DNA of 64,000 bases from a candidate division WOR-1 bacterium RIFOXYB2_FULL_42_35 (GTDB lineage: Bacteria > Margulisbacteria > WOR-1 > O2-12-FULL-45-9). How positions within the stretch are numbered: position 1 is the stretch's first letter; each line of letters begins with the position of its first letter. The DNA lies in the NCBI GenBank assembly GCA_001771545.1, contig MEUC01000029.1:1445-65444 (forward strand), read 5' to 3'. Both the position numbers and the translations under genes were made by a program. The notes below the pieces were generated by a model. It saw nothing but the letters and a program-made list of their open reading frames with translations, had not been told where the DNA came from and searched no databases. Positions 611 through 45,441 of the stretch are shown here, piece after piece.

Positions 611-955
611 TGGCAGTGCCAGCCTTAAGCCCCGGCTTGTCTCTTATAAAATATTATTTAAATAAACCTCTAAGACTCAAAGACTCTAAGATCTTTTCTA
701 TATATAAACAAATTTCCCAGACCTAAATAGTTACAAAAAAAATGAAATTTCGATAAGAAAGTGAAGATAATACTATGTGGGTGGTTGGGGTAAATGAGCC
801 AGGCAAGAAAACGTCTCAATAAATTTTAACAAAAAGGAACGTAAAAGTGGCTATTGAAGCAAATGGTAGCGGTAAACCTGCCTTCTTAATAGCAAGACCT
901 AAAAAAAACAAAACCAGGCGAACCCGCAGCAACGCCACGTCCAAACACACAAGCT

Positions 956-5188: not shown

Positions 5189-6520
5189 TCAGTTATTACT
5201 GCTTTGACAGCCATTTCTTTTGCCCAGGATAGAGCAAAGTTTGCGGCTGTAAAAATATAAGCCGGTTATCAAATTAGCCATGGCTAGGGGTAGTTTTTTG
5301 GGCCAGTTAAATAAGCCCATAAATCGCGCAGAAAGTTTTCCGTGCCTGGCAAACAACCAGCCAGCCAAATAAGCTCGAAATTTTTTGCCCAAACCAATGC
5401 GGCTTTGCAGTTCACTTAAAGGCATTGTTAGGCTGTCAGCCAGCCTGATATTATGTTTTTGGCAAAAAGCCTTGACCTCTTCTTCCATTAAAGCAAATAA
5501 ACCAGCTTTAACATTATTGCCAAACAATTTTGCTGTTGTTTGGGGAAAGCCAGCGGCAGCTAATAATACCATTTGCCTGGGCTTGTTAGTTGGTAGCTTT
5601 ACCTGGCTTAAAACAGCTAATAGTTTTCTTGGCAAACCACCCAGGCTATTAGGTGAAGCTAAAACTATTAAGTCAGCCTTATCAAGTTGTTGGCTAACTT
5701 GGTTAATATCTGTCCCATTGTTCCAAGCTAAAACTTCAATATTTTCTTTATAACCCAGCCCTTTTAAAAACCAGCGAGCCAGCCCAGAAGAGATTGAGCT
5801 GTTTTTCCTGCTTGAGCCAGTTATAACAATAATTTTGGGGTTTGGGAGAAGATTGGCTGTCTGTATGTCTGGTTCAGGCCTTGGACTGGTTAATGAAGTG
5901 CCATTTGTTTCAAAGTGTAAATGCTTAAAATGATAAACTGTTTTAATCCATTCCAGCTGTGCCGTAACTAATCTTGGGCTAGTTTTTTGTTGGTTATCCA
6001 AAATTACAGATAATCGTTTGTTAGTGCTAGAGATTTCTTGCTTGGCTAGGGGATGAACAGGCGCACCGCTTTGGCCAATTATTGTTTGCCAGGTAAGAGC
6101 TGATAAGCAAAGCTCAAAAGTTTTAAGCATAAACTGAACATCAGCACAGCTGTAAGCGGATAAGCCGCTGGGATCAGCTTCTTGTCCTTGTTCACCCAAA
6201 AGATCAAGCGGCACCACCACCTCATCTGCAGCAGCAATTTGCTGTAGCGCGTTTGCCAGTGGCCCATTACCCAAACAACAAAGACCTGTGCTTTTTTCCC
6301 AACAGGAAAATTTTCTTTGGCAGTCTGGCAAATTTTTCCCGTTGATAAGAGTGACATCTCCAGGACTAATAGCTTCATGTATTCCAGAGTGAATAACAGT
6401 TAATTGTACATTTGCTTGGGTATATCGTCTAATTAATTCATCAGCCTTAGCTGGTTGGCTGCTGCTTGGACCTAATAATAAGACAACTTTTTTGCTTGTA
6501 GCGCTAGGAGTTGTTAGCAT
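5189..6520 (-). CDS. Hypothetical protein with a flavodoxin-like / NADPH-dependent FMN-reductase-like segment.
   Basis: The segment KIIVITGSSRKNSS...LIVLASP resembles the flavodoxin-fold reductase N-terminus. The remainder is unassigned. It is convergent with the 1407-aa ORF. Confidence 0.45.
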   Translation of the reverse strand: MLTTPSATSKKVVLLLGPSSSQPAKADELIRRYTQANVQLTVIHSGIHEAISPGDVTLINGKNLPDCQRKFSCWEKSTGLCCLGNGPLANALQQIAAADEVVVPLDLLGEQGQEADPSGLSAYSCADVQFMLKTFELCLSALTWQTIIGQSGAPVHPLAKQEISSTNKRLSVILDNQQKTSPRLVTAQLEWIKTVYHFKHLHFETNGTSLTSPRPEPDIQTANLLPNPKIIVITGSSRKNSSISSGLARWFLKGLGYKENIEVLAWNNGTDINQVSQQLDKADLIVLASPNSLGGLPRKLLAVLSQVKLPTNKPRQMVLLAAAGFPQTTAKLFGNNVKAGLFALMEEEVKAFCQKHNIRLADSLTMPLSELQSRIGLGKKFRAYLAGWLFARHGKLSARFMGLFNWPKKLPLAMANLITGLYFYSRKLCSILGKRNGCQSSNN

Positions 6521-6642
6521 CTTTTGTTAAAACCTTTTCTAAACCATAATGCTTAATGCTTTTTCCAAATTAAAAGCAGCAAACTCTGTTATGCTTGTGG
6601 TTCTCAAGCAACTCTTTTGCTTCGCGCAAGATTCAATATTCT

Positions 6643-6753
6643 TATATATATGAGGACTCCGAAAAATTGACTCTCTACTCGACGACAGCCGGCGACCCTA
6701 AGAGGGTCGCCTACGCGGAGAAGTTGAGTTTTTCGGAACTCTCTATATATATC
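6643..6753. repeat. MITE-like palindromic element. It has TA-repeat flanks, inverted CCGAAAAA/TTTTTCGG arms, and a central hairpin GGCGACCCT-AAG-AGGGTCGCC followed by TACGCG.
   Basis: Inverted repeats and the hairpin were read directly. A related copy lies at 42103-42240. Confidence 0.7.
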
Positions 6754-6988
6754 GCCAGTTTTTTAAGAAAATTTCACAATTTTTGGTTGGCTTGGTTTTT
6801 TTATTGTCAGATGGCTAAATTGTTGAACTTTCAATTCCTCTGTGAAATTTGATATACTGAAATAAATTACGAGAGAGAAGGAAAGAAATGCAGGTTTCAA
6901 AAAAATAATTCAAAAAAATGAAAAAATGCGGCTGCAGCAAAAAAGAAAGTCCCCATTTTTCTAATTAATTGACGAAAGCAAAATAATA

Positions 6989-31460: not shown

Positions 31461-32456
31461 TTATCCCTTTATTAAAATATTAGAAAACAATTTTCTCCTT
31501 AGATGGAATGAATTGGCAAATACGGCGTACCCCAGCCAGCTTTGTATTGAGCAAGTAATCTTGGGTATGGACATTAAGTTGCTTTGAAAAAGGCTGATAT
31601 ATTTTCTCATTCTTATTTTAAAGCGCTTGACGTTTTCTTTGGCCACCAGCTTATGGCTGGGATAAACCTTATAGCCAAGAAACTTCACGCCGTTCTTAGT
31701 TGGATAGACCTGGCATTTATTAGCATGCAGTTGCAGCTTTAGCTTTTCAAGATAATCAGCAATTCTTTTTCTGGCCTGGTTTAGCTGTCCTTTATCATTA
31801 CCAAATACTATCAGGTCGTCCATATAACGGAGGTAAAACCGGCATTTAAGGTTTTCTTTTAAATAATGGTCTAACCCATTGAGATAAAGATTGGCAAATA
31901 TCTGGCTAGCTAAATTCCCAATCGGAATCCCAGGAGAAGGTGTTGAATCAATAATTAGTTTAATCAGCCAAAGAGCTTCCGGGTCTTTTATCTTATCCAT
32001 AATCATCCCGAGTAAGATTTCGTGATCTATGGAAGCAAAATAGTTTTTAACGTCGCACTTCAAAGCATATTTATTTTTGCGGCAATATACTTGAAACCGG
32101 CTAACAGCCCGATGGCTGCCTTTGCTTTTCCGGCAAGCGTAGGAATCGAAGATCAGCACCCGATCAAAAATGGGCTCAATGACATTGCAAAGTGCATGCT
32201 GGGCAACTCGATCTCGGTAAGGCAAGGCACTGATTAGTCTCTTTTTCGGATCATAGATATGGAATTGCTTGTAGTGACCAACCCGATATGTGTGGCTTTG
32301 GAGTTCTGCCTGAAGAGTAAAAATCTCTTTTTCAAAACCAAGATTAAAATCGCTGACAGGGGTTTTGAGCTTCTTGCCTCTCTGGGCCTTCCCGGCCGCT
32401 AAAAGGAGGTTCTCAAAAGAGCAGATTTTCTCATAAAGATTATGATGCCTTTTCAT
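31461..32456 (-). CDS. Diversity-generating-retroelement reverse transcriptase.
   Basis: RT motifs …RYMDDLIVFG… and the DGR-specific IPIGNLASQIFANLYLNGLD. Flanked by TR and VR. Confidence 0.85.
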   Translation of the reverse strand: MKRHHNLYEKICSFENLLLAAGKAQRGKKLKTPVSDFNLGFEKEIFTLQAELQSHTYRVGHYKQFHIYDPKKRLISALPYRDRVAQHALCNVIEPIFDRVLIFDSYACRKSKGSHRAVSRFQVYCRKNKYALKCDVKNYFASIDHEILLGMIMDKIKDPEALWLIKLIIDSTPSPGIPIGNLASQIFANLYLNGLDHYLKENLKCRFYLRYMDDLIVFGNDKGQLNQARKRIADYLEKLKLQLHANKCQVYPTKNGVKFLGYKVYPSHKLVAKENVKRFKIRMRKYISLFQSNLMSIPKITCSIQSWLGYAVFANSFHLRRKLFSNILIKG

Positions 32457-32778
32457 GTTTTAGCCAGCCCCCAACCTGGGAACCGATTTCCAAAAGATAT
32501 CGGGCAGCGAACTCATAGCTCTTAAGATTGATCAAACGCAGATCATGGCTAAGGCGAAACAGATAGCGCAGCTTTTCAATTTCAAGATTTGCGTTCTTAA
32601 GCGCATTAGTTTTGTCTTTGGAATATTGGGCTTCAATGAGAAGCTCCAACAGGCCAATTACTTTATTTTCGATTCTTTCTCCGAGGGTATATCTTTGATT
32701 GCGCGGGAACTTCGCAATGTGGGGGACGACCCATCTGAGGAAATCATAGGAACAGGTTACGACTTTTGGCCCTTCCAT
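32440..32778 (-). CDS. Probable DGR accessory variability determinant (Avd-like small helical protein).
   Basis: 112-aa helical ORF between the VR-bearing target and the RT. Overlaps the RT start by 17 nt. Confidence 0.5.
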   Translation of the reverse strand: MEGPKVVTCSYDFLRWVVPHIAKFPRNQRYTLGERIENKVIGLLELLIEAQYSKDKTNALKNANLEIEKLRYLFRLSHDLRLINLKSYEFAARYLLEIGSQVGGWLKHEKAS

Positions 32779-32837
32779 ATTATGCTAAAATTTTCCTTCC
32801 CCACCCCTAAAAAAGTAAAAGGATAAAGCTTAATTTA

Positions 32838-33500
32838 TTAGTCCTCGACCAGGTGAACCGCGCTGCTGCCATAACGATCATCAGGGCTGCTGCTGAAGTT
32901 GCGGTTCGCGTAGTACAGAGAACGCCAATAGTAGGTGTCACTCCCCTTGCTGCTTTCTACCAAAAACCAATTATTCCCTCTCAGTTTAGCTTTCACATCA
33001 GCTGGTAAAGCCACAAATTCAGCCTCAGTCATAAACCTAAACTTTCTGCCTCGTTCATTTGCTCCTTTAATATAGTTCTTCGCATCATCCACATTTAAAA
33101 ACGTCAATGTCTCTCCGCTCGGCTCTTTCAAGCGGTCCCGAAGCGCTTCCTTGTTATGGCCGCTAACTTTCTCTGGCTTTAAGAATTGTGCGGCTTCAGC
33201 GTCTGTTAATTCTCCTATCATTATTTTTTTATAAGTTTGCCCCTCAACATTAAGCATATGCGGGAAAATTGTCTCGGGCTGGACTATATCCACAAGTTCT
33301 ATTTGAATGGCAACAGGATCTCGCCTTTGAGCTAGTAGAGATGGGAGGTCAGCGACCTTGTCTTCTGGTCTAAAACCTGGTCCTTTATGACCTGCCAGTC
33401 TTTTTGCCATTGCCTCTACTTTGGCTTTGTCTGACACTCCATCACTGGCACGGACTAGAACAGAACCTAAACTCTTTTTATCAATCCTTAAAAAACTCAT
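32838..33500 (-). CDS. DGR variable (target) protein with a minimal C-type-lectin/FGE-like fold. The VR lies at the C-terminus.
   Basis: …RKFRFMTEAEFVA… then WRSLYYANRNFSSSPDDRYGSSAVHLVED, encoded by the VR. Confidence 0.75.
   Translation of the reverse strand: MSFLRIDKKSLGSVLVRASDGVSDKAKVEAMAKRLAGHKGPGFRPEDKVADLPSLLAQRRDPVAIQIELVDIVQPETIFPHMLNVEGQTYKKIMIGELTDAEAAQFLKPEKVSGHNKEALRDRLKEPSGETLTFLNVDDAKNYIKGANERGRKFRFMTEAEFVALPADVKAKLRGNNWFLVESSKGSDTYYWRSLYYANRNFSSSPDDRYGSSAVHLVED
32845..32926 (-). repeat. DGR variable repeat (VR).
   Basis: Pairs with the TR at 31367-31448. The substitutions A→G (8) and A→T (4) all fall at TR adenines. Confidence 0.85.
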
Positions 33501-35666: not shown

Positions 35667-37289
<1,623 letters not shown>

Positions 37290-37297
<8 letters not shown>

Positions 37298-37640
37298 AAA
37301 TGGTCCCCTTCTTTATATTATCAACAACTTGCTTAACGCGAATATCTCTTATCCCTGCAGGAGTTAAAAGATCAACTTTTCTACCAAATGAATCTTCAAG
37401 AAAAAAAGCCAAATCCATAAAATTATCAAAACTGGTTTTCTTAAATTCAACAACCAAATCTATATCACTTTGGCTACTTTGTTCACCCCGGGCAAAAGAA
37501 CCAAACAAGCCAATGCGTTTAACATTAAATTTCTGCAAAACCCCGCTATTTTTCTTTAAAAAGCCTAAAATATCATCAGCCGTAAGATTTTTGCCATCTT
37601 TTCCTTTTTTATCATCTTTCATGTTTATTAGTATACCCAA
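37290..37640 (-). CDS. Nucleotidyltransferase antitoxin (MntA family).
   Basis: IGLFGSFARGEQSSQSDIDLVV. Confidence 0.7.
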
Positions 37641-41252: not shown

Positions 41253-41893
41253 TTCAATAAGTATACCGTAAAATCGCCCAAATGATAATCATGTCTTAAG
41301 ATGTATTTACCACAAACAAAACGACAAAAATGCAAGATCTCTTCCGGTTTAAAATAAAAATAGCGGCCAGATTGTCTATCTTCAAAATCACTAATTGGCA
41401 AGGCCCCTTCACTTAGAAAATTAAGAGCTGCTCCATAACGGCTGAGGTCAAACATCCTCAAGATCATCGATTTAACAAATTCCAGATGGCTTTCCGCATC
41501 TGTGGTACGAATGTTGAAGATACCCGAGGCAAAAAGATAATCAAATTGCGGAATCAAACGATCTTCCAGGATATCTTTTAATTCAAAGCGTGCTTCCGAG
41601 TATTTCTTCTTAGCCACCGCTAGGAGTTTAGCTGAGATATCGTAGCCGGAATAGTTGATCCGATGGGCTTTGAGTAATTTTTCTCGTTTTAGAAAACCGT
41701 AAAAATCACCAAACCCACAGCCCACGTCAAGAACGGAAATATTAGCTGCTTTGCGGCCATAAATAAAGATCTCTTTAAAAATCTGGTATCTTAATTTTTG
41801 GCTTTCGGGGTTATTCCAGTCCAGGGCCAGATAATTTTCACCGTGCTGGTCCAAAAGTCCTTCGAAATAATCAATCTGCGCTTGTTTGTCCAT
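41249..41893 (-). CDS. Class I SAM-dependent methyltransferase.
   Basis: VLDVGCGFGDF. Confidence 0.7.
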   Translation of the reverse strand: MDKQAQIDYFEGLLDQHGENYLALDWNNPESQKLRYQIFKEIFIYGRKAANISVLDVGCGFGDFYGFLKREKLLKAHRINYSGYDISAKLLAVAKKKYSEARFELKDILEDRLIPQFDYLFASGIFNIRTTDAESHLEFVKSMILRMFDLSRYGAALNFLSEGALPISDFEDRQSGRYFYFKPEEILHFCRFVCGKYILRHDYHLGDFTVYLLK

Positions 41894-41949
41894 AAGAATA
41901 AAAAAAGTTTAACACTATTTATTTATGATTTCAACGCAGAAAAAGCGCA

Positions 41950-42240
41950 GAAAAAGTGTCCCCCAAAGTGTATTTCGGGGGGAATGAGCCAAAAGAATAA
42001 CGCAGCGCCTAAGAGGCGCTGCTACGCGGGGGACCTAAATAGTTACAAATTCTTTCAAATAATTTTTGGGTTTCGTGAAATTTCTTCTTAAAATCATAGA
42101 CAACATATATAGAGAGCTCCGAAAAACTCGTTTTCTTCGCGTAGGCGACCCTCTTAGGGTCGCTCGTTGTCGACGAGAAGCAGAGCCTAAGAGGCTCTGC
42201 TACGCGAGTTAAAGGTTATTTTTTCGGAGGTCTCATATAT
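41950..42240. repeat. Cluster of three AAG-triloop hairpin units with MITE-like inverted arms and TA-repeat flanks. Related to 6643-6753.
   Basis: Hairpins read directly: GCAGCGCCT-AAG-AGGCGCTGC-TACGCG (42002-42028), GCGACCCT…AGGGTCGC (42144-42163, inverted) and GCAGAGCCT-AAG-AGGCTCTGC-TACGCG (42180-42206). Arms are ATATATAGAGAGCTCCGAAAAA / TTTTTTCGGAGGTCTCATATAT. Confidence 0.7.
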
Positions 42241-42241
42241 C

Positions 42242-43906
42242 ATGATAGCTAACGCCAATTTTGGAAGTTTATATGCTTATCTAAAACCTGGTCGCACTCC
42301 AGGCAAGAGCCAACCTTTGCTGCAAAGATTAGCTAAACAGAAAACAGTATCCAGAGGCATTGTTGCTGCAGCTAAAACCGATCTGACAATTAGCTCTAGG
42401 CTGGAAAGGCAGAATCTTTCTGCCATCGATTTTGAGCGGCTTGAAGGCCAAGCCTGCCAAACAAGACTCACTGCAATTGGGTTAATAGAAAATCGGCACG
42501 ATATGTTTGTCACTGAGGCAGAGTTAGAGGCTGCCCCTGCTCAACGCCAGCAATCAGGAACAGACACTGTTGTAGCCAGCGGTTTTGTCCATCCGGTGGC
42601 AAACGGAAATGGTCAAAGTACAAAACCAAAAGGCGGCCTGATCACAGAGGGATCCTTTCACCGGCCAGTTGTTCGTCTAATATACTCAACAATAGAACAA
42701 GGACATGTTTATATTTATCGGAACAAACTACAACCGGATAAAAATCTGGAAACAGAAGTTTTTCCGCTTGAAGGAGAACCTTTGCCCGAAAATGTTCTTG
42801 TAAGGGTCTGCTCAGATAATGAACTGGAAATCTGTTATCCTGACGGCAGTCATAGCCATTATATTGATTCCAATCATGCTGCAGGTTTTAGAATTACTAA
42901 GCTCGCACCATATTTAGCAGATATTGAATCAATTGCCGGGTATTTTTTCATGAAGGTTTCCGGTGAGGGGGAATTAGCCTTAGCTAATAGAGTTATCCCT
43001 CTGCCAAGATATGAAAGTCAATATGTTAAAGTAACCTTTGTTTATGGACAAATTACCATTGAGAATCCCGATACGAGAGAAACCTTATTCCAGTTTAAAC
43101 AAAAGAACCAAACAAGATTGCACCCCAAAGCCGCAGCAGTTGATTTAGCCTCACTTTCCGGAAGAGAGATAAGAGAGGTAAGCAAAGATGGCTCTTTTGG
43201 CTTAGGAGGTTCAACGCTATACTTGGCTCGTCACCATTACGGTAAAACGATCGCCATTGAACTTCGTGCTGGCCTCATCATCTCTATAACGGACCAGACA
43301 ACAAGACAACCGATTCCTCTGGAAGATCTGCGGGTTACTCACATTTATAGCAGCCAAGGTAGAAGAATAGGCTTTATCCCTGTTAAACATCATTTTAGTC
43401 AGGCTGATTTTAGGAGAAGAACTGGTTGGTTGCTTTTAGATGAAATTAGAGGCAAAACTTTCTACCATTGCAATGGCAAAGTCCCCTTCCCTCAAGGTTT
43501 TACCCGAGTATTTGCCAGGCTGGAAAATGGTAAAATCCTTGGTTATCACTGCTATCATGATGCCCAAGCTTTGCCCAATCAGGCTCCTGATAATCCGGTT
43601 TGGTTTAAGAGGTTATATCTAAATAGCAAAAGACCGCACTTGGTAACTCCAAAACCAGACCAGGATTTCTGGCAACAATTTTATGCAACTCCAGGAGCAA
43701 GAGTAACACATTATCAGGTTCCCAAAAATCTAAGGACTTCAATTGGTTTAACAGGAACAAGATATGTTGAGCAAAAATTCGCCAGACACTGGCAAATCAT
43801 TACTAATCTTGGAAATGGGAAACTTCTGTTTAGCTACTACAAAAACCCAACGTCTAATCCGAAAGAAAAACCGGTTGCAACCGAAGTCTGGGATATCCCT
43901 AAATAA
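42242..43906 (+). CDS. Hypothetical protein (554 aa). No recognised domain.
   Basis: Long ORF starting directly after the repeat cluster. Arg/Gln-rich, with composition distinct from its neighbours. Confidence 0.55.
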   Translation: MIANANFGSLYAYLKPGRTPGKSQPLLQRLAKQKTVSRGIVAAAKTDLTISSRLERQNLSAIDFERLEGQACQTRLTAIGLIENRHDMFVTEAELEAAPAQRQQSGTDTVVASGFVHPVANGNGQSTKPKGGLITEGSFHRPVVRLIYSTIEQGHVYIYRNKLQPDKNLETEVFPLEGEPLPENVLVRVCSDNELEICYPDGSHSHYIDSNHAAGFRITKLAPYLADIESIAGYFFMKVSGEGELALANRVIPLPRYESQYVKVTFVYGQITIENPDTRETLFQFKQKNQTRLHPKAAAVDLASLSGREIREVSKDGSFGLGGSTLYLARHHYGKTIAIELRAGLIISITDQTTRQPIPLEDLRVTHIYSSQGRRIGFIPVKHHFSQADFRRRTGWLLLDEIRGKTFYHCNGKVPFPQGFTRVFARLENGKILGYHCYHDAQALPNQAPDNPVWFKRLYLNSKRPHLVTPKPDQDFWQQFYATPGARVTHYQVPKNLRTSIGLTGTRYVEQKFARHWQIITNLGNGKLLFSYYKNPTSNPKEKPVATEVWDIPK

Positions 43907-44963: not shown

Positions 44964-45212
44964 TTAAAATAATTCTAAAACAAGCGCTTCTTTACTGATC
45001 TCTAAATAGGCGCTTATATCTTTTAAAATATTATTCAAGGTGCCTATCTTAATTTCATCATGGTCCGGAATAGTAATTTTATGTTCAATCCCTTTATAAA
45101 GAGATTTTAACCTGATATGGCTGCCCGTTTCTCTTTCTGCCTGATAGCCATATTTCTTATTAAGAAGCTTAATTAATTCTCTACCGGAAATATCTCTTGG
45201 TATCTTAGGCAT
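44964..45212 (-). CDS. hicA: HicA-family mRNA-interferase toxin.
   Basis: …ISGRELIKLLNKKYGYQAERETGSHIRLKS…. Confidence 0.55.
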   Translation of the reverse strand: MPKIPRDISGRELIKLLNKKYGYQAERETGSHIRLKSLYKGIEHKITIPDHDEIKIGTLNNILKDISAYLEISKEALVLELF

Positions 45213-45441
45213 AAGTTAGAGTTTCCTCTCTAACTATATGAAGAATCACGACCGAAGGGATATCTTCTTTTTTTTCGAAGTGGCAAGCCAAAGCTTTTTT
45301 GATATTGTCTTTTAATTCAGGAAGATTATCCGCTTCGGTAAATATCGATTGTCCCAAAGCCTTGGCACTATAACCGCCGCTTAGATCTTCTTCTACCATA
45401 AAAATTATTTCTGTCTTCACCATTTTAGTTCCTCCTTGCAA
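45205..45441 (-). CDS. hicB: HicB-family antitoxin (UPF0150).
   Basis: …EEDLSGGYSAKALGQSIFTEADNLPELKDNIKKAL…. Confidence 0.55.
   Translation of the reverse strand: MQGGTKMVKTEIIFMVEEDLSGGYSAKALGQSIFTEADNLPELKDNIKKALACHFEKKEDIPSVVILHIVREETLTYA

Follow-up and report, generated by a model that had tools for sequence, protein, structure and literature searches.

A probable GTAG-type REP family of Saganbacteria and Margulisbacteria, met as an IS66-family end relic beside a REPIN-like doublet

The closest described relatives of the repeats considered here are the GTAG-type repetitive extragenic palindromic (REP) sequences, which are defined as a G+C-rich palindrome, split by 2–4 nt, with a GT(A/G)G head immediately before it (Nunvar 2010, PMC2817692; Di Nocera 2013, PMC3733652). 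Repeats of this type have been reported from Proteobacteria, Cyanobacteria, Chloroflexi and the Planctomycetes–Verrucomicrobia–Chlamydiae (PVC) group (PMC3733652), and they include the REPs and bacterial interspersed mosaic elements (BIMEs) of E. coli with their REP-associated tyrosine transposase (RAYT), TnpA-REP or YafM (PDB 4ER8), the REPs of Stenotrophomonas and Pseudomonas, and the REP doublets forming hairpins (REPINs) of P. fluorescens. This text is about a cluster of hairpins, about 290 bp long, in a 64-kb stretch of DNA from candidate division WOR-1 bacterium RIFOXYB2_FULL_42_35 (assembly GCA_001771545.1, contig MEUC01000029.1, forward-strand positions 1,445 to 65,444; hereafter the window, numbered from its first letter). 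It is very probable that these hairpins are GTAG-type REPs of a family specific to Saganbacteria/Margulisbacteria – WOR-1 is equated with Saganbacteria in PMC6349859 – and that the cluster consists of two neighbours, a relic of the end of an IS66-family insertion sequence (IS) and a REPIN-like doublet. The REP family is real but ordinary in kind, its side feature being the REP carried in the IS66-family end.

Each unit is 27 nt long and is made up of a 9-bp G+C-rich stem, an AAG triloop and the 3′ tail CTACGCG; read on the opposite strand, every unit begins with CGCGTAG and continues with a palindrome split by 3 nt, and it is because of this head and this split palindrome that the units fit the published REP definition. 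All four units of the window show the same order of CGCGTAG, an 8–10-bp stem, a 3-nt loop and the returning stem. The covariance model R1, which rests on 43 distinct units, finds exactly these four in the 64 kb (42.8–46 bits, E 7e-9 to 4e-8), three of them just where an earlier note on this DNA, made from its letters alone, had seen hairpins with an AAG loop. The features of the cluster, and of the fourth unit, are as follows (strand in brackets; loci fetched from elsewhere are cited below by L numbers).

41960 to 42049 (−): IS66-family left-end solo remnant, 90 nt, whose interior would face lower coordinates
42002 to 42028 (+): REP unit 1, GCAGCGCCT-AAG-AGGCGCTGC-TACGCG, perfect 9-bp stem; R1 45.8 bits, E 8e-9
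42035 to 42049 (no strand): IS66-family terminal inverted repeat, GACCTAAATAGTTAC here and TACCTAAATAGTTAC in the full copy, with one mismatch
42105 to 42240 (+): REPIN-like composite of left arm, REP, spacer, REP and right arm, an architecture that recurs elsewhere
42105 to 42126 (+): left arm ATATATAGAGAGCTCCGAAAAA, pairing with 42219–42240
42138 to 42164 (−): REP unit 2, on the + strand CGCGTAG-GCGACCCT-CTT-AGGGTCGC, head outward (left); R1 42.8 bits, E 4e-8
42164 to 42179 (+): spacer CTCGTTGTCGACGAGA, 16 nt, with a small hairpin of its own; predicted third arm of the junction
42180 to 42206 (+): REP unit 3, GCAGAGCCT-AAG-AGGCTCTGC-TACGCG, head outward (right); R1 46 bits, E 7e-9
42219 to 42240 (+): right arm TTTTTTCGGAGGTCTCATATAT, containing GGAGG at 42226–42230, 11 nt ahead of the ATG at 42242
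6640 to 6756 (−): copy A, an arm-bearing element with one REP, the second REP missing
6691 to 6717 (within copy A): fourth REP unit, with the same stem as unit 2

The stem of the unit varies and its ends do not. Units 1 and 3 differ by a single compensated base pair; among the 43 distinct units, six of the nine stem pairs have changed on both sides, the apex T-AAG-AG and the C-T..C of the tail are invariant, and the other positions of CTACGCG are at least 90% conserved. The covariation score of this set is 0.636, against 0.125 for shuffles and 0.04–0.10 for slid-register controls. As the 43 units were gathered with a pairing requirement, the figure of 93.5% paired is partly circular, which applies neither to the covariation nor to a count made on 23 distinct cores of the exact pattern GNNCCTAAGAGGNNCNNCTACGCG. 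This pattern leaves stem positions 1–3, 5 and 6 and their partners free, and the cores are nevertheless Watson–Crick paired at 5/17 and 6/16 in 23/23 cases, at 3/19 in 20/23 and at 2/20 in 18/23. G–U pairs occupy 3 of 387 cells in the 43 units, a scarcity of wobble that is easier to reconcile with a palindrome in DNA than with an RNA helix.

A scan for the same exact pattern through one genome per species, and through Joint Genome Institute (JGI) metagenomes, gave 11 matches in the genomes – at least 7 of them in metagenome-assembled genomes (MAGs) named Saganbacteria or Margulisiibacteriota – and 39 stretches in the metagenomes; the unit is found almost only in Saganbacteria/Margulisbacteria. 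With the GTAG-type systems it shares the head and split palindrome, the compensatory changes in the stem and the extragenic location, whereas the host, the invariant 7-nt head CGCGTAG, the perfect 9-bp stem and the fixed CCT-AAG-AGG apex set it apart from them.

As an observation on its own, a second small palindrome, CCCTGCCTGCCGGCAGGCAGG, sits with its variants in the REP loop at L022:1204-1272, at L045:679-726 and in L053 (about 100 nt beside 815–838), and a similar palindrome occurs outside a REP in L017; it looks like another mini-element, one that targets REP loops.

The units are tied to a transposase by what surrounds the RAYT genes of related organisms. At two loci (L052, L054) two inverted units stand about 580 nt apart with a RAYT open reading frame (ORF) between them; these ORFs reach 130.5 bits (L052:6593-7084) and 126.9 bits against NCBIfam REP_Tyr_transpos, whose cut-off is 80 bits, and the L052 ORF also matches Pfam Y1_Tnp (6e-12). 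The RAYT resembles E. coli TnpA-REP (PDB 4ER8; E 1.9e-11), and eight homologs all preserve its HUH motif, HFHW, as well as the tyrosine within Y-I-H-K-N-P. Of the two units in L052, the upstream one, CGCGTAG-CCGAGCCT-CTT-AGGCTCGG, ends 40 nt ahead of the ATG, and the downstream unit, GCAGCGCCT-AAG-AGGCGCTGC-TACGCG, whose stem is that of unit 1 of the window, begins 15 nt past the stop codon. The same order – a ‘−’ unit upstream, a ‘+’ unit downstream, as found with R1 – holds in all ten distinct RAYT loci of the clade (L040, L049, L052, L054, L057, L061, L062, L066, L067 and L068; all from related organisms, not the window genome). Inverted units around a RAYT gene are the diagnostic REP-RAYT arrangement, one more likeness to the GTAG-type systems, in which inverted units flank the rayt gene too. 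RAYT homologs make up a small clade at 55% identity or more, and the sole source name attached to them is Candidatus Margulisbacteria.

By analogy with the described systems, one would picture the unit extruding on single-stranded DNA as a 9-bp hairpin with its fixed CCT-AAG-AGG apex and fixed CGCGTAG head; the RAYT, as an HUH/Y1 tyrosine transposase, would recognise the extruded hairpin, cleave at or near the head and copy units or doublets into new intergenic sites. On this picture the RAYT would be what mobilises the units. A comparable reading of hairpins is known from the subterminal hairpins of IS200/IS605 elements (IS608, ISDra2), which as single-stranded DNA are read by a RAYT-related HUH/Y1 transposase (Y1_Tnp). 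The units described here differ in that they are not the ends of a gene-carrying, multiplying IS, and the transposase is the RAYT equivalog: it scores 27.8 bits with the NCBIfam IS200 TnpA model, below that model’s cut-off of 55 bits.

At L054:1786-1880, L054:1160-1230 and L049:620-690, immediately next to RAYT genes, parts of REP halves are duplicated in tandem (e.g. ...ATAAGAGGCTCGGCTACGCG three times over). Repeated rounds of RAYT cleavage and religation could have left such footprints.

Units 2 and 3 of the window belong together. The arms outside them are 93% complementary (42112–42126 with 42220–42234), and the segment 42100–42245 folds into a three-way junction closed by these arms, with z-scores against shuffles of −9.5 as DNA and −7.9 as RNA. 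The earlier note had seen inverted arms, which are real, but had let them bound all three units; the left arm at 42105–42126 lies between units 1 and 2 and so encloses the doublet only. The architecture recurs in L020, L038 and L042 with arms and spacer nearly identical; there the spacers read AAGTTGTCGTCGAGAA (L020), TCGTTGTCGACAAGAA (L038) and, in L042, exactly as in the window; the core ..TTGTCGNCGAGAA.. is common to all four. Doublets of the window population carry the spacer ..TTGTCGACGAGAA.. and flanks of about 35 nt ending in GAGAGCTCCGAAAAA / TTTTTCGGAG(G/C)TCTC. Diverged versions are found in other Saganbacteria species (L008, L013) and on a metagenome contig (L053).

Pairing is the rule for the family as a whole. 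Across loci most units are paired, heads outward, 42–46 nt from start to start where undisrupted. In the metagenome Ga0208953, 22 units on 13 stretches resolve into nine outward-headed doublets and four IS ends – a lower bound (at least 22 units, 13 sites), as it comes from hit-centred stretches – so that the inverted doublet with a conserved spacer is the predominant form (9/13 sites), as it is among the GTAG-type systems. Armless doublets of the same geometry occur in L026, L044, L023, L037 and L050, and because they share this geometry it is the REP pair, and not the arms, that is the constant part. The arms themselves, some 35 nt of extra sequence closing a three-way junction, are a difference from the described REPINs.

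Further witness to repetition comes from contig ends. Three contigs (L003, L004, L006) start or break inside the block 42105–42240, and a fourth (L005) joins the block to another left flank, namely that of the L042 copy. Two doublet copies have therefore met in L005, by chimeric assembly or by recombination, and the case shows repetition, not transposition. Taken with the recurrences above, 42105–42240 is a non-autonomous REPIN-like element present at several loci of the population. Copy A is a second copy of it, with one REP fewer than the two-REP copy L020: blastn aligns copy A with 42105–42163 at 91.5% identity over 59 nt, with a further arm match of 21 nt, and it has the same orientation as the window doublet relative to its downstream gene (5189–6520, − strand).

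Might the arms rather be the terminal inverted repeats of a classical miniature inverted-repeat transposable element (MITE), moved by a DDE transposase, with the REPs as passengers? Inverted arms of 15–22 nt are indeed conserved between copies, their AT-rich ends (TATATA) could conceal a TA target duplication, and a DDE element of the same population, of the IS66 family and apparently active, carries a REP. Yet no transposase gene with these arms as its termini appears in any fetched locus; the arms bear no relation to GTAACTATTTAGGTA, the terminal repeat of the IS66-family element; the outer ends vary between copies, with no consistent duplication; and the five armless doublets keep the geometry of the armed ones. 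Moreover, composites of a GTAG unit with other stem-loop repeats have already been described beside RAYT genes (PMC3733652). Together these points make the MITE explanation improbable, although it fares best among the alternatives, and we return to the reading of the arms as part of a REPIN-like element.

Unit 1 has a different history. Elements of the IS66 family typically have GTAA termini and 8-bp target duplications. The segment 41960–42049 matches the left end of a full IS copy (L035:304-2046) at 86 of 90 nt (about 96%). That copy, 1743 bp long, has terminal arms (303–318 and 2032–2047) of 16 nt with 100% complementarity and codes for a 63-aa MazE/AbrB-like protein and a 468-aa DDE_Tnp_IS66 transposase with a zf-IS66 domain (618–2024, 1.1e-44). 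The left end recurs as an identical sequence, ...CCCCCAAAGTGTATTTTGGGG...AACGCAGCGCCTAAGAGGCGCTGCTACGCGGGGTACCTAAATAGTTAC, on ten contigs, where it stops sharply at ...TAGTTAC and is followed by nine different flanks; many of the IS-end contigs start 85 nt inside it. Matching left-end with right-end contigs gave three 8-bp target duplications (GTTAAAGT, AGAAAATT, CTAAATAG), and by the same matching L035 itself proves to be stitched from two IS copies. Carriers of the element are L035, L012, L018, L025, L029, L033, L034, L039, L047, L055 and L056, at no fewer than nine distinct insertion sites, and on its sequence the 1743-bp element looks active.

In its DDE_Tnp_IS66 and zf-IS66 domains, its terminal repeats starting with GTAA, its 8-bp duplications and its multiple copies, this element is like IS66; it departs from IS66 in having the short MazE/AbrB-like ORF in place of the usual TnpA/TnpB pair and in having a REP built into its left end. 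The REP is set 7 nt inward of the left terminal repeat and points its head outward – CGCGTAG on the − strand faces the IS terminus – and this arrangement is kept in a relative (L012) whose transposase is 78% identical. The window copy is the last 90 nt of such an element: because only the left end is matched, and the IS66 transposase is absent from the 64-kb window, 41960–42049 is a solo end remnant. The earlier note, to which the cluster looked like a single mobile mini-element inserted in nested or tandem fashion, was right as to kind, since the units are RAYT-associated REPs and recur as REPIN-like doublets, but not as to arrangement, the cluster being two elements side by side.

Another candidate for the ...TAGTTAC boundary, an IS200/IS605 end with a TTAC target, was ruled out by the adjacent IS66-type ORFs and the 8-bp duplications. 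Elsewhere in the window there is one further match to the IS:

720 to 737 (+): isolated exact match of 18 nt to the IS66 terminal repeat and flank, GACCTAAATAGTTACAAA; neither a REP nor other IS sequence adjoins it

This fragment may be a very small leftover of an IS66 copy or a preferred target-like site.

Several observations weigh against reading the cluster as part of a REP-RAYT system of this organism. The 64-kb window holds no RAYT gene, and the RAYT contigs that could be traced all come from other samples or species, none from RIFOXYB2_FULL_42_35; in the RAYT locus of a Rifle sample (L054), the nearest NCBI relative of the neighbouring gene is no closer than 75% identity. Few units were counted – four at two intergenic sites in 64 kb, compared with more than 100 copies per genome for classical REPs, and one or two exact-pattern matches in each related genome – and the density appears low for a system of this kind. 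Neither presence/absence polymorphism nor an excision product was seen among the contigs with this locus, all of which are identical, and mobility is therefore something we infer. Lastly, pairing arms of about 35 nt fall outside the classical definition of a REP and could be the terminal repeats of a different type of transposon. The metagenome of L054 also holds the IS66 end. As to the missing gene, the MAG is fragmented and breaks at these repeats, and RAYT loss is possible too.

With these reservations, the REP/REPIN-RAYT system is extended to Saganbacteria/Margulisbacteria, uncultured sister lineages of Cyanobacteria; a literature search found no description of it in these groups. Its presence there fits the view of GTAG-type REPs as old, vertically kept residents of genomes (PMC3733652). 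Together with the REP-bearing IS66 element, the repeats are points at which assemblies of this organism break or mis-join (L003–L006, L035), and knowing these points aids genome finishing and guards against taking chimeric contigs for rearrangements. As a 27-nt DNA whose head and apex are invariant while its stem covaries freely, the unit also offers a clean substrate for studying how a RAYT reads hairpins.

The setting of the cluster is given by the following features.

348 nt, divergent intergenic region, holding the whole hairpin cluster of about 290 bp
start codon at 41893 (−): methyltransferase/TrkA-channel/CysRS operon, on one side of the intergenic region
41906 to 41934 (−): sigma-70-like promoter TTGAAA-17-TAAACT, with a TG before it, which would serve the divergent methyltransferase operon
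42242 to 43906 (+): 554-aa gene with its ATG at 42242, a neighbour of the repeat and not part of it

The right arm of the doublet ends at 42240, adjoining the ATG of the 554-aa gene just as the earlier note had it. The other explanation given there was a structured 5′ leader; spelt out, 42105–42240 and copy A would be a dedicated leader RNA whose hairpins bind a protein or ligand and whose closing stem masks the ribosome-binding site. Both window copies do lie upstream of the next gene in the same orientation, the GGAGG 11 nt ahead of the ATG is paired with the left-arm CTCC in the predicted RNA fold (that with the z-score of −7.9), and the equivalent arm in L013 also abuts a start codon. The downstream genes, however, are unrelated to one another – they encode proteins of 554 aa and 443 aa, a 275-aa ORF, an NtrC-type regulator and others – and only two of ten arm ends abut a long ORF, while single units, in either orientation, follow stop codons, lie between convergent genes or flank transposase genes. 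The rarity of G–U pairs reported above is what is expected of a DNA palindrome. Rfam gives no match at E≤1 in 41850–42350, its sole match at gathering score in the window being a tRNA, and the + strand showed no promoter-like site. Units at many unrelated loci in both orientations thus speak against a structured leader as the identity of this sequence, and nothing found in the fetched loci of relatives takes the form of an uninterrupted conserved leader free of repeat character; we consider the leader explanation very improbable, more so than a MITE. Least credible of all, to the point of being negligible, is the idea of transcription terminators or insulators whose likeness in sequence is a matter of chance: unit 1 does score as terminator-like on the − strand (a 9-bp stem, then GTTATTCTTT) and several single units stand just past stop codons (L011, L015), but a T-run is missing from units 2 and 3, from copy A and from most units elsewhere, termination has no need of an invariant 7-nt head and a fixed triloop apex, and the RAYT association would be left unexplained.

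Read on the − strand, into the former IS, a second hairpin is terminator-like together with unit 1, and the promoter TTGAAA-17-TAAACT comes after both. A scan of 41700–42400 gave this as the sole promoter-like site, where 1.3 would be expected by chance, so that there is no excess; no site was found on the + strand in that range.

A REP doublet, as distinct from a dedicated leader, may still touch the expression of its neighbour. If a transcript were to start upstream of 42105, the left-arm CTCC would hide the GGAGG ahead of the 554-aa ATG, and the doublet may thus, speculatively, lie in the 5′ untranslated region and mask this Shine–Dalgarno-like motif as a side effect, which is how it might affect the gene. 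The idea is speculative because no + strand promoter was detected and because arm ends abut a long ORF in 2/10 cases; for the same count, the arm as a general supplier of Shine–Dalgarno sequence and ATG was rejected. In two instances the REPIN arm does put GGAGG and the start context directly before lineage-restricted genes, the 554-aa gene and the 275-aa ORF of L013. A wider joint scenario – in which the IS66-family element ferries REPs within and between genomes, or has taken its REP into service to block read-in transcription, as an insulator or terminator, and in which REPIN insertion switches on or gates young genes – is unlikely in our judgement.

Codon statistics mark the 554-aa ORF as a real gene (+0.22 bits per codon in frame, against −0.40 and −0.89 off frame). 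An identical copy of the protein is encoded on GCA_001772455.1 (MEUL01000015.1, candidate division WOR-1 bacterium RIFOXYB2_FULL_42_35), and the protein is also encoded on contigs of several other JGI and European Nucleotide Archive (ENA) metagenome assemblies. It had been called an orphan, a status that does not hold strictly: a word-indexed search returned only the self-match, but an exhaustive HMMER search found ten distant homologs (21–48% identity, 190–584 aa). A profile scan gave the protein no Pfam or NCBIfam match, and none of eight scanned homologs (0/8) has a significant Pfam domain. An AlphaFold2 (AF2) model built on the homolog alignment is beta-rich, with a predicted local distance difference test score (pLDDT) of 76 and a predicted template modelling score (pTM) of 0.45, and a Foldseek comparison with the PDB gave no meaningful fold match (TM about 0.1). 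The protein is a member of a small uncharacterised family, unrelated to the 275-aa ORF behind the L013 doublet. Contigs ending at both ends of the gene had prompted the ideas that the ORF is a transposase or that gene and element form one mobile cassette; neither is supported, because there is no transposase domain and no repeat at the 3′ end of the gene, and because the L005 junction is explained by the second doublet copy (L042). A phage origin was rejected: matches in the phage collection were trivial, and the window is cellular DNA with housekeeping genes.

The motif TGAAATTT occurs seven times in the window, at 743, 6769(−), 6843, 33575(−), 42076, 55159 and 56725(−), against a chance expectation of 12. 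At least five of the seven copies are intergenic, mostly shortly upstream of gene starts, and the motif stands upstream of both window doublet elements as well as of the L020, L038 and L042 copies. It was rejected as a component of the repeat, being overall rarer than chance, and may be a promoter-associated motif.

Two other features of the window deserve mention. The stretch from about 31461 to 33500 (L001:1-1259) combines an RVT_1 reverse transcriptase with a bAvd accessory gene and a domainless 220-aa ORF, and appears to be a diversity-generating retroelement cassette. Around the locus there are toxin–antitoxin-like pairs at 36959–37622 and 44964–45441 (MNT/HepT nucleotidyltransferase–HEPN, HicA).

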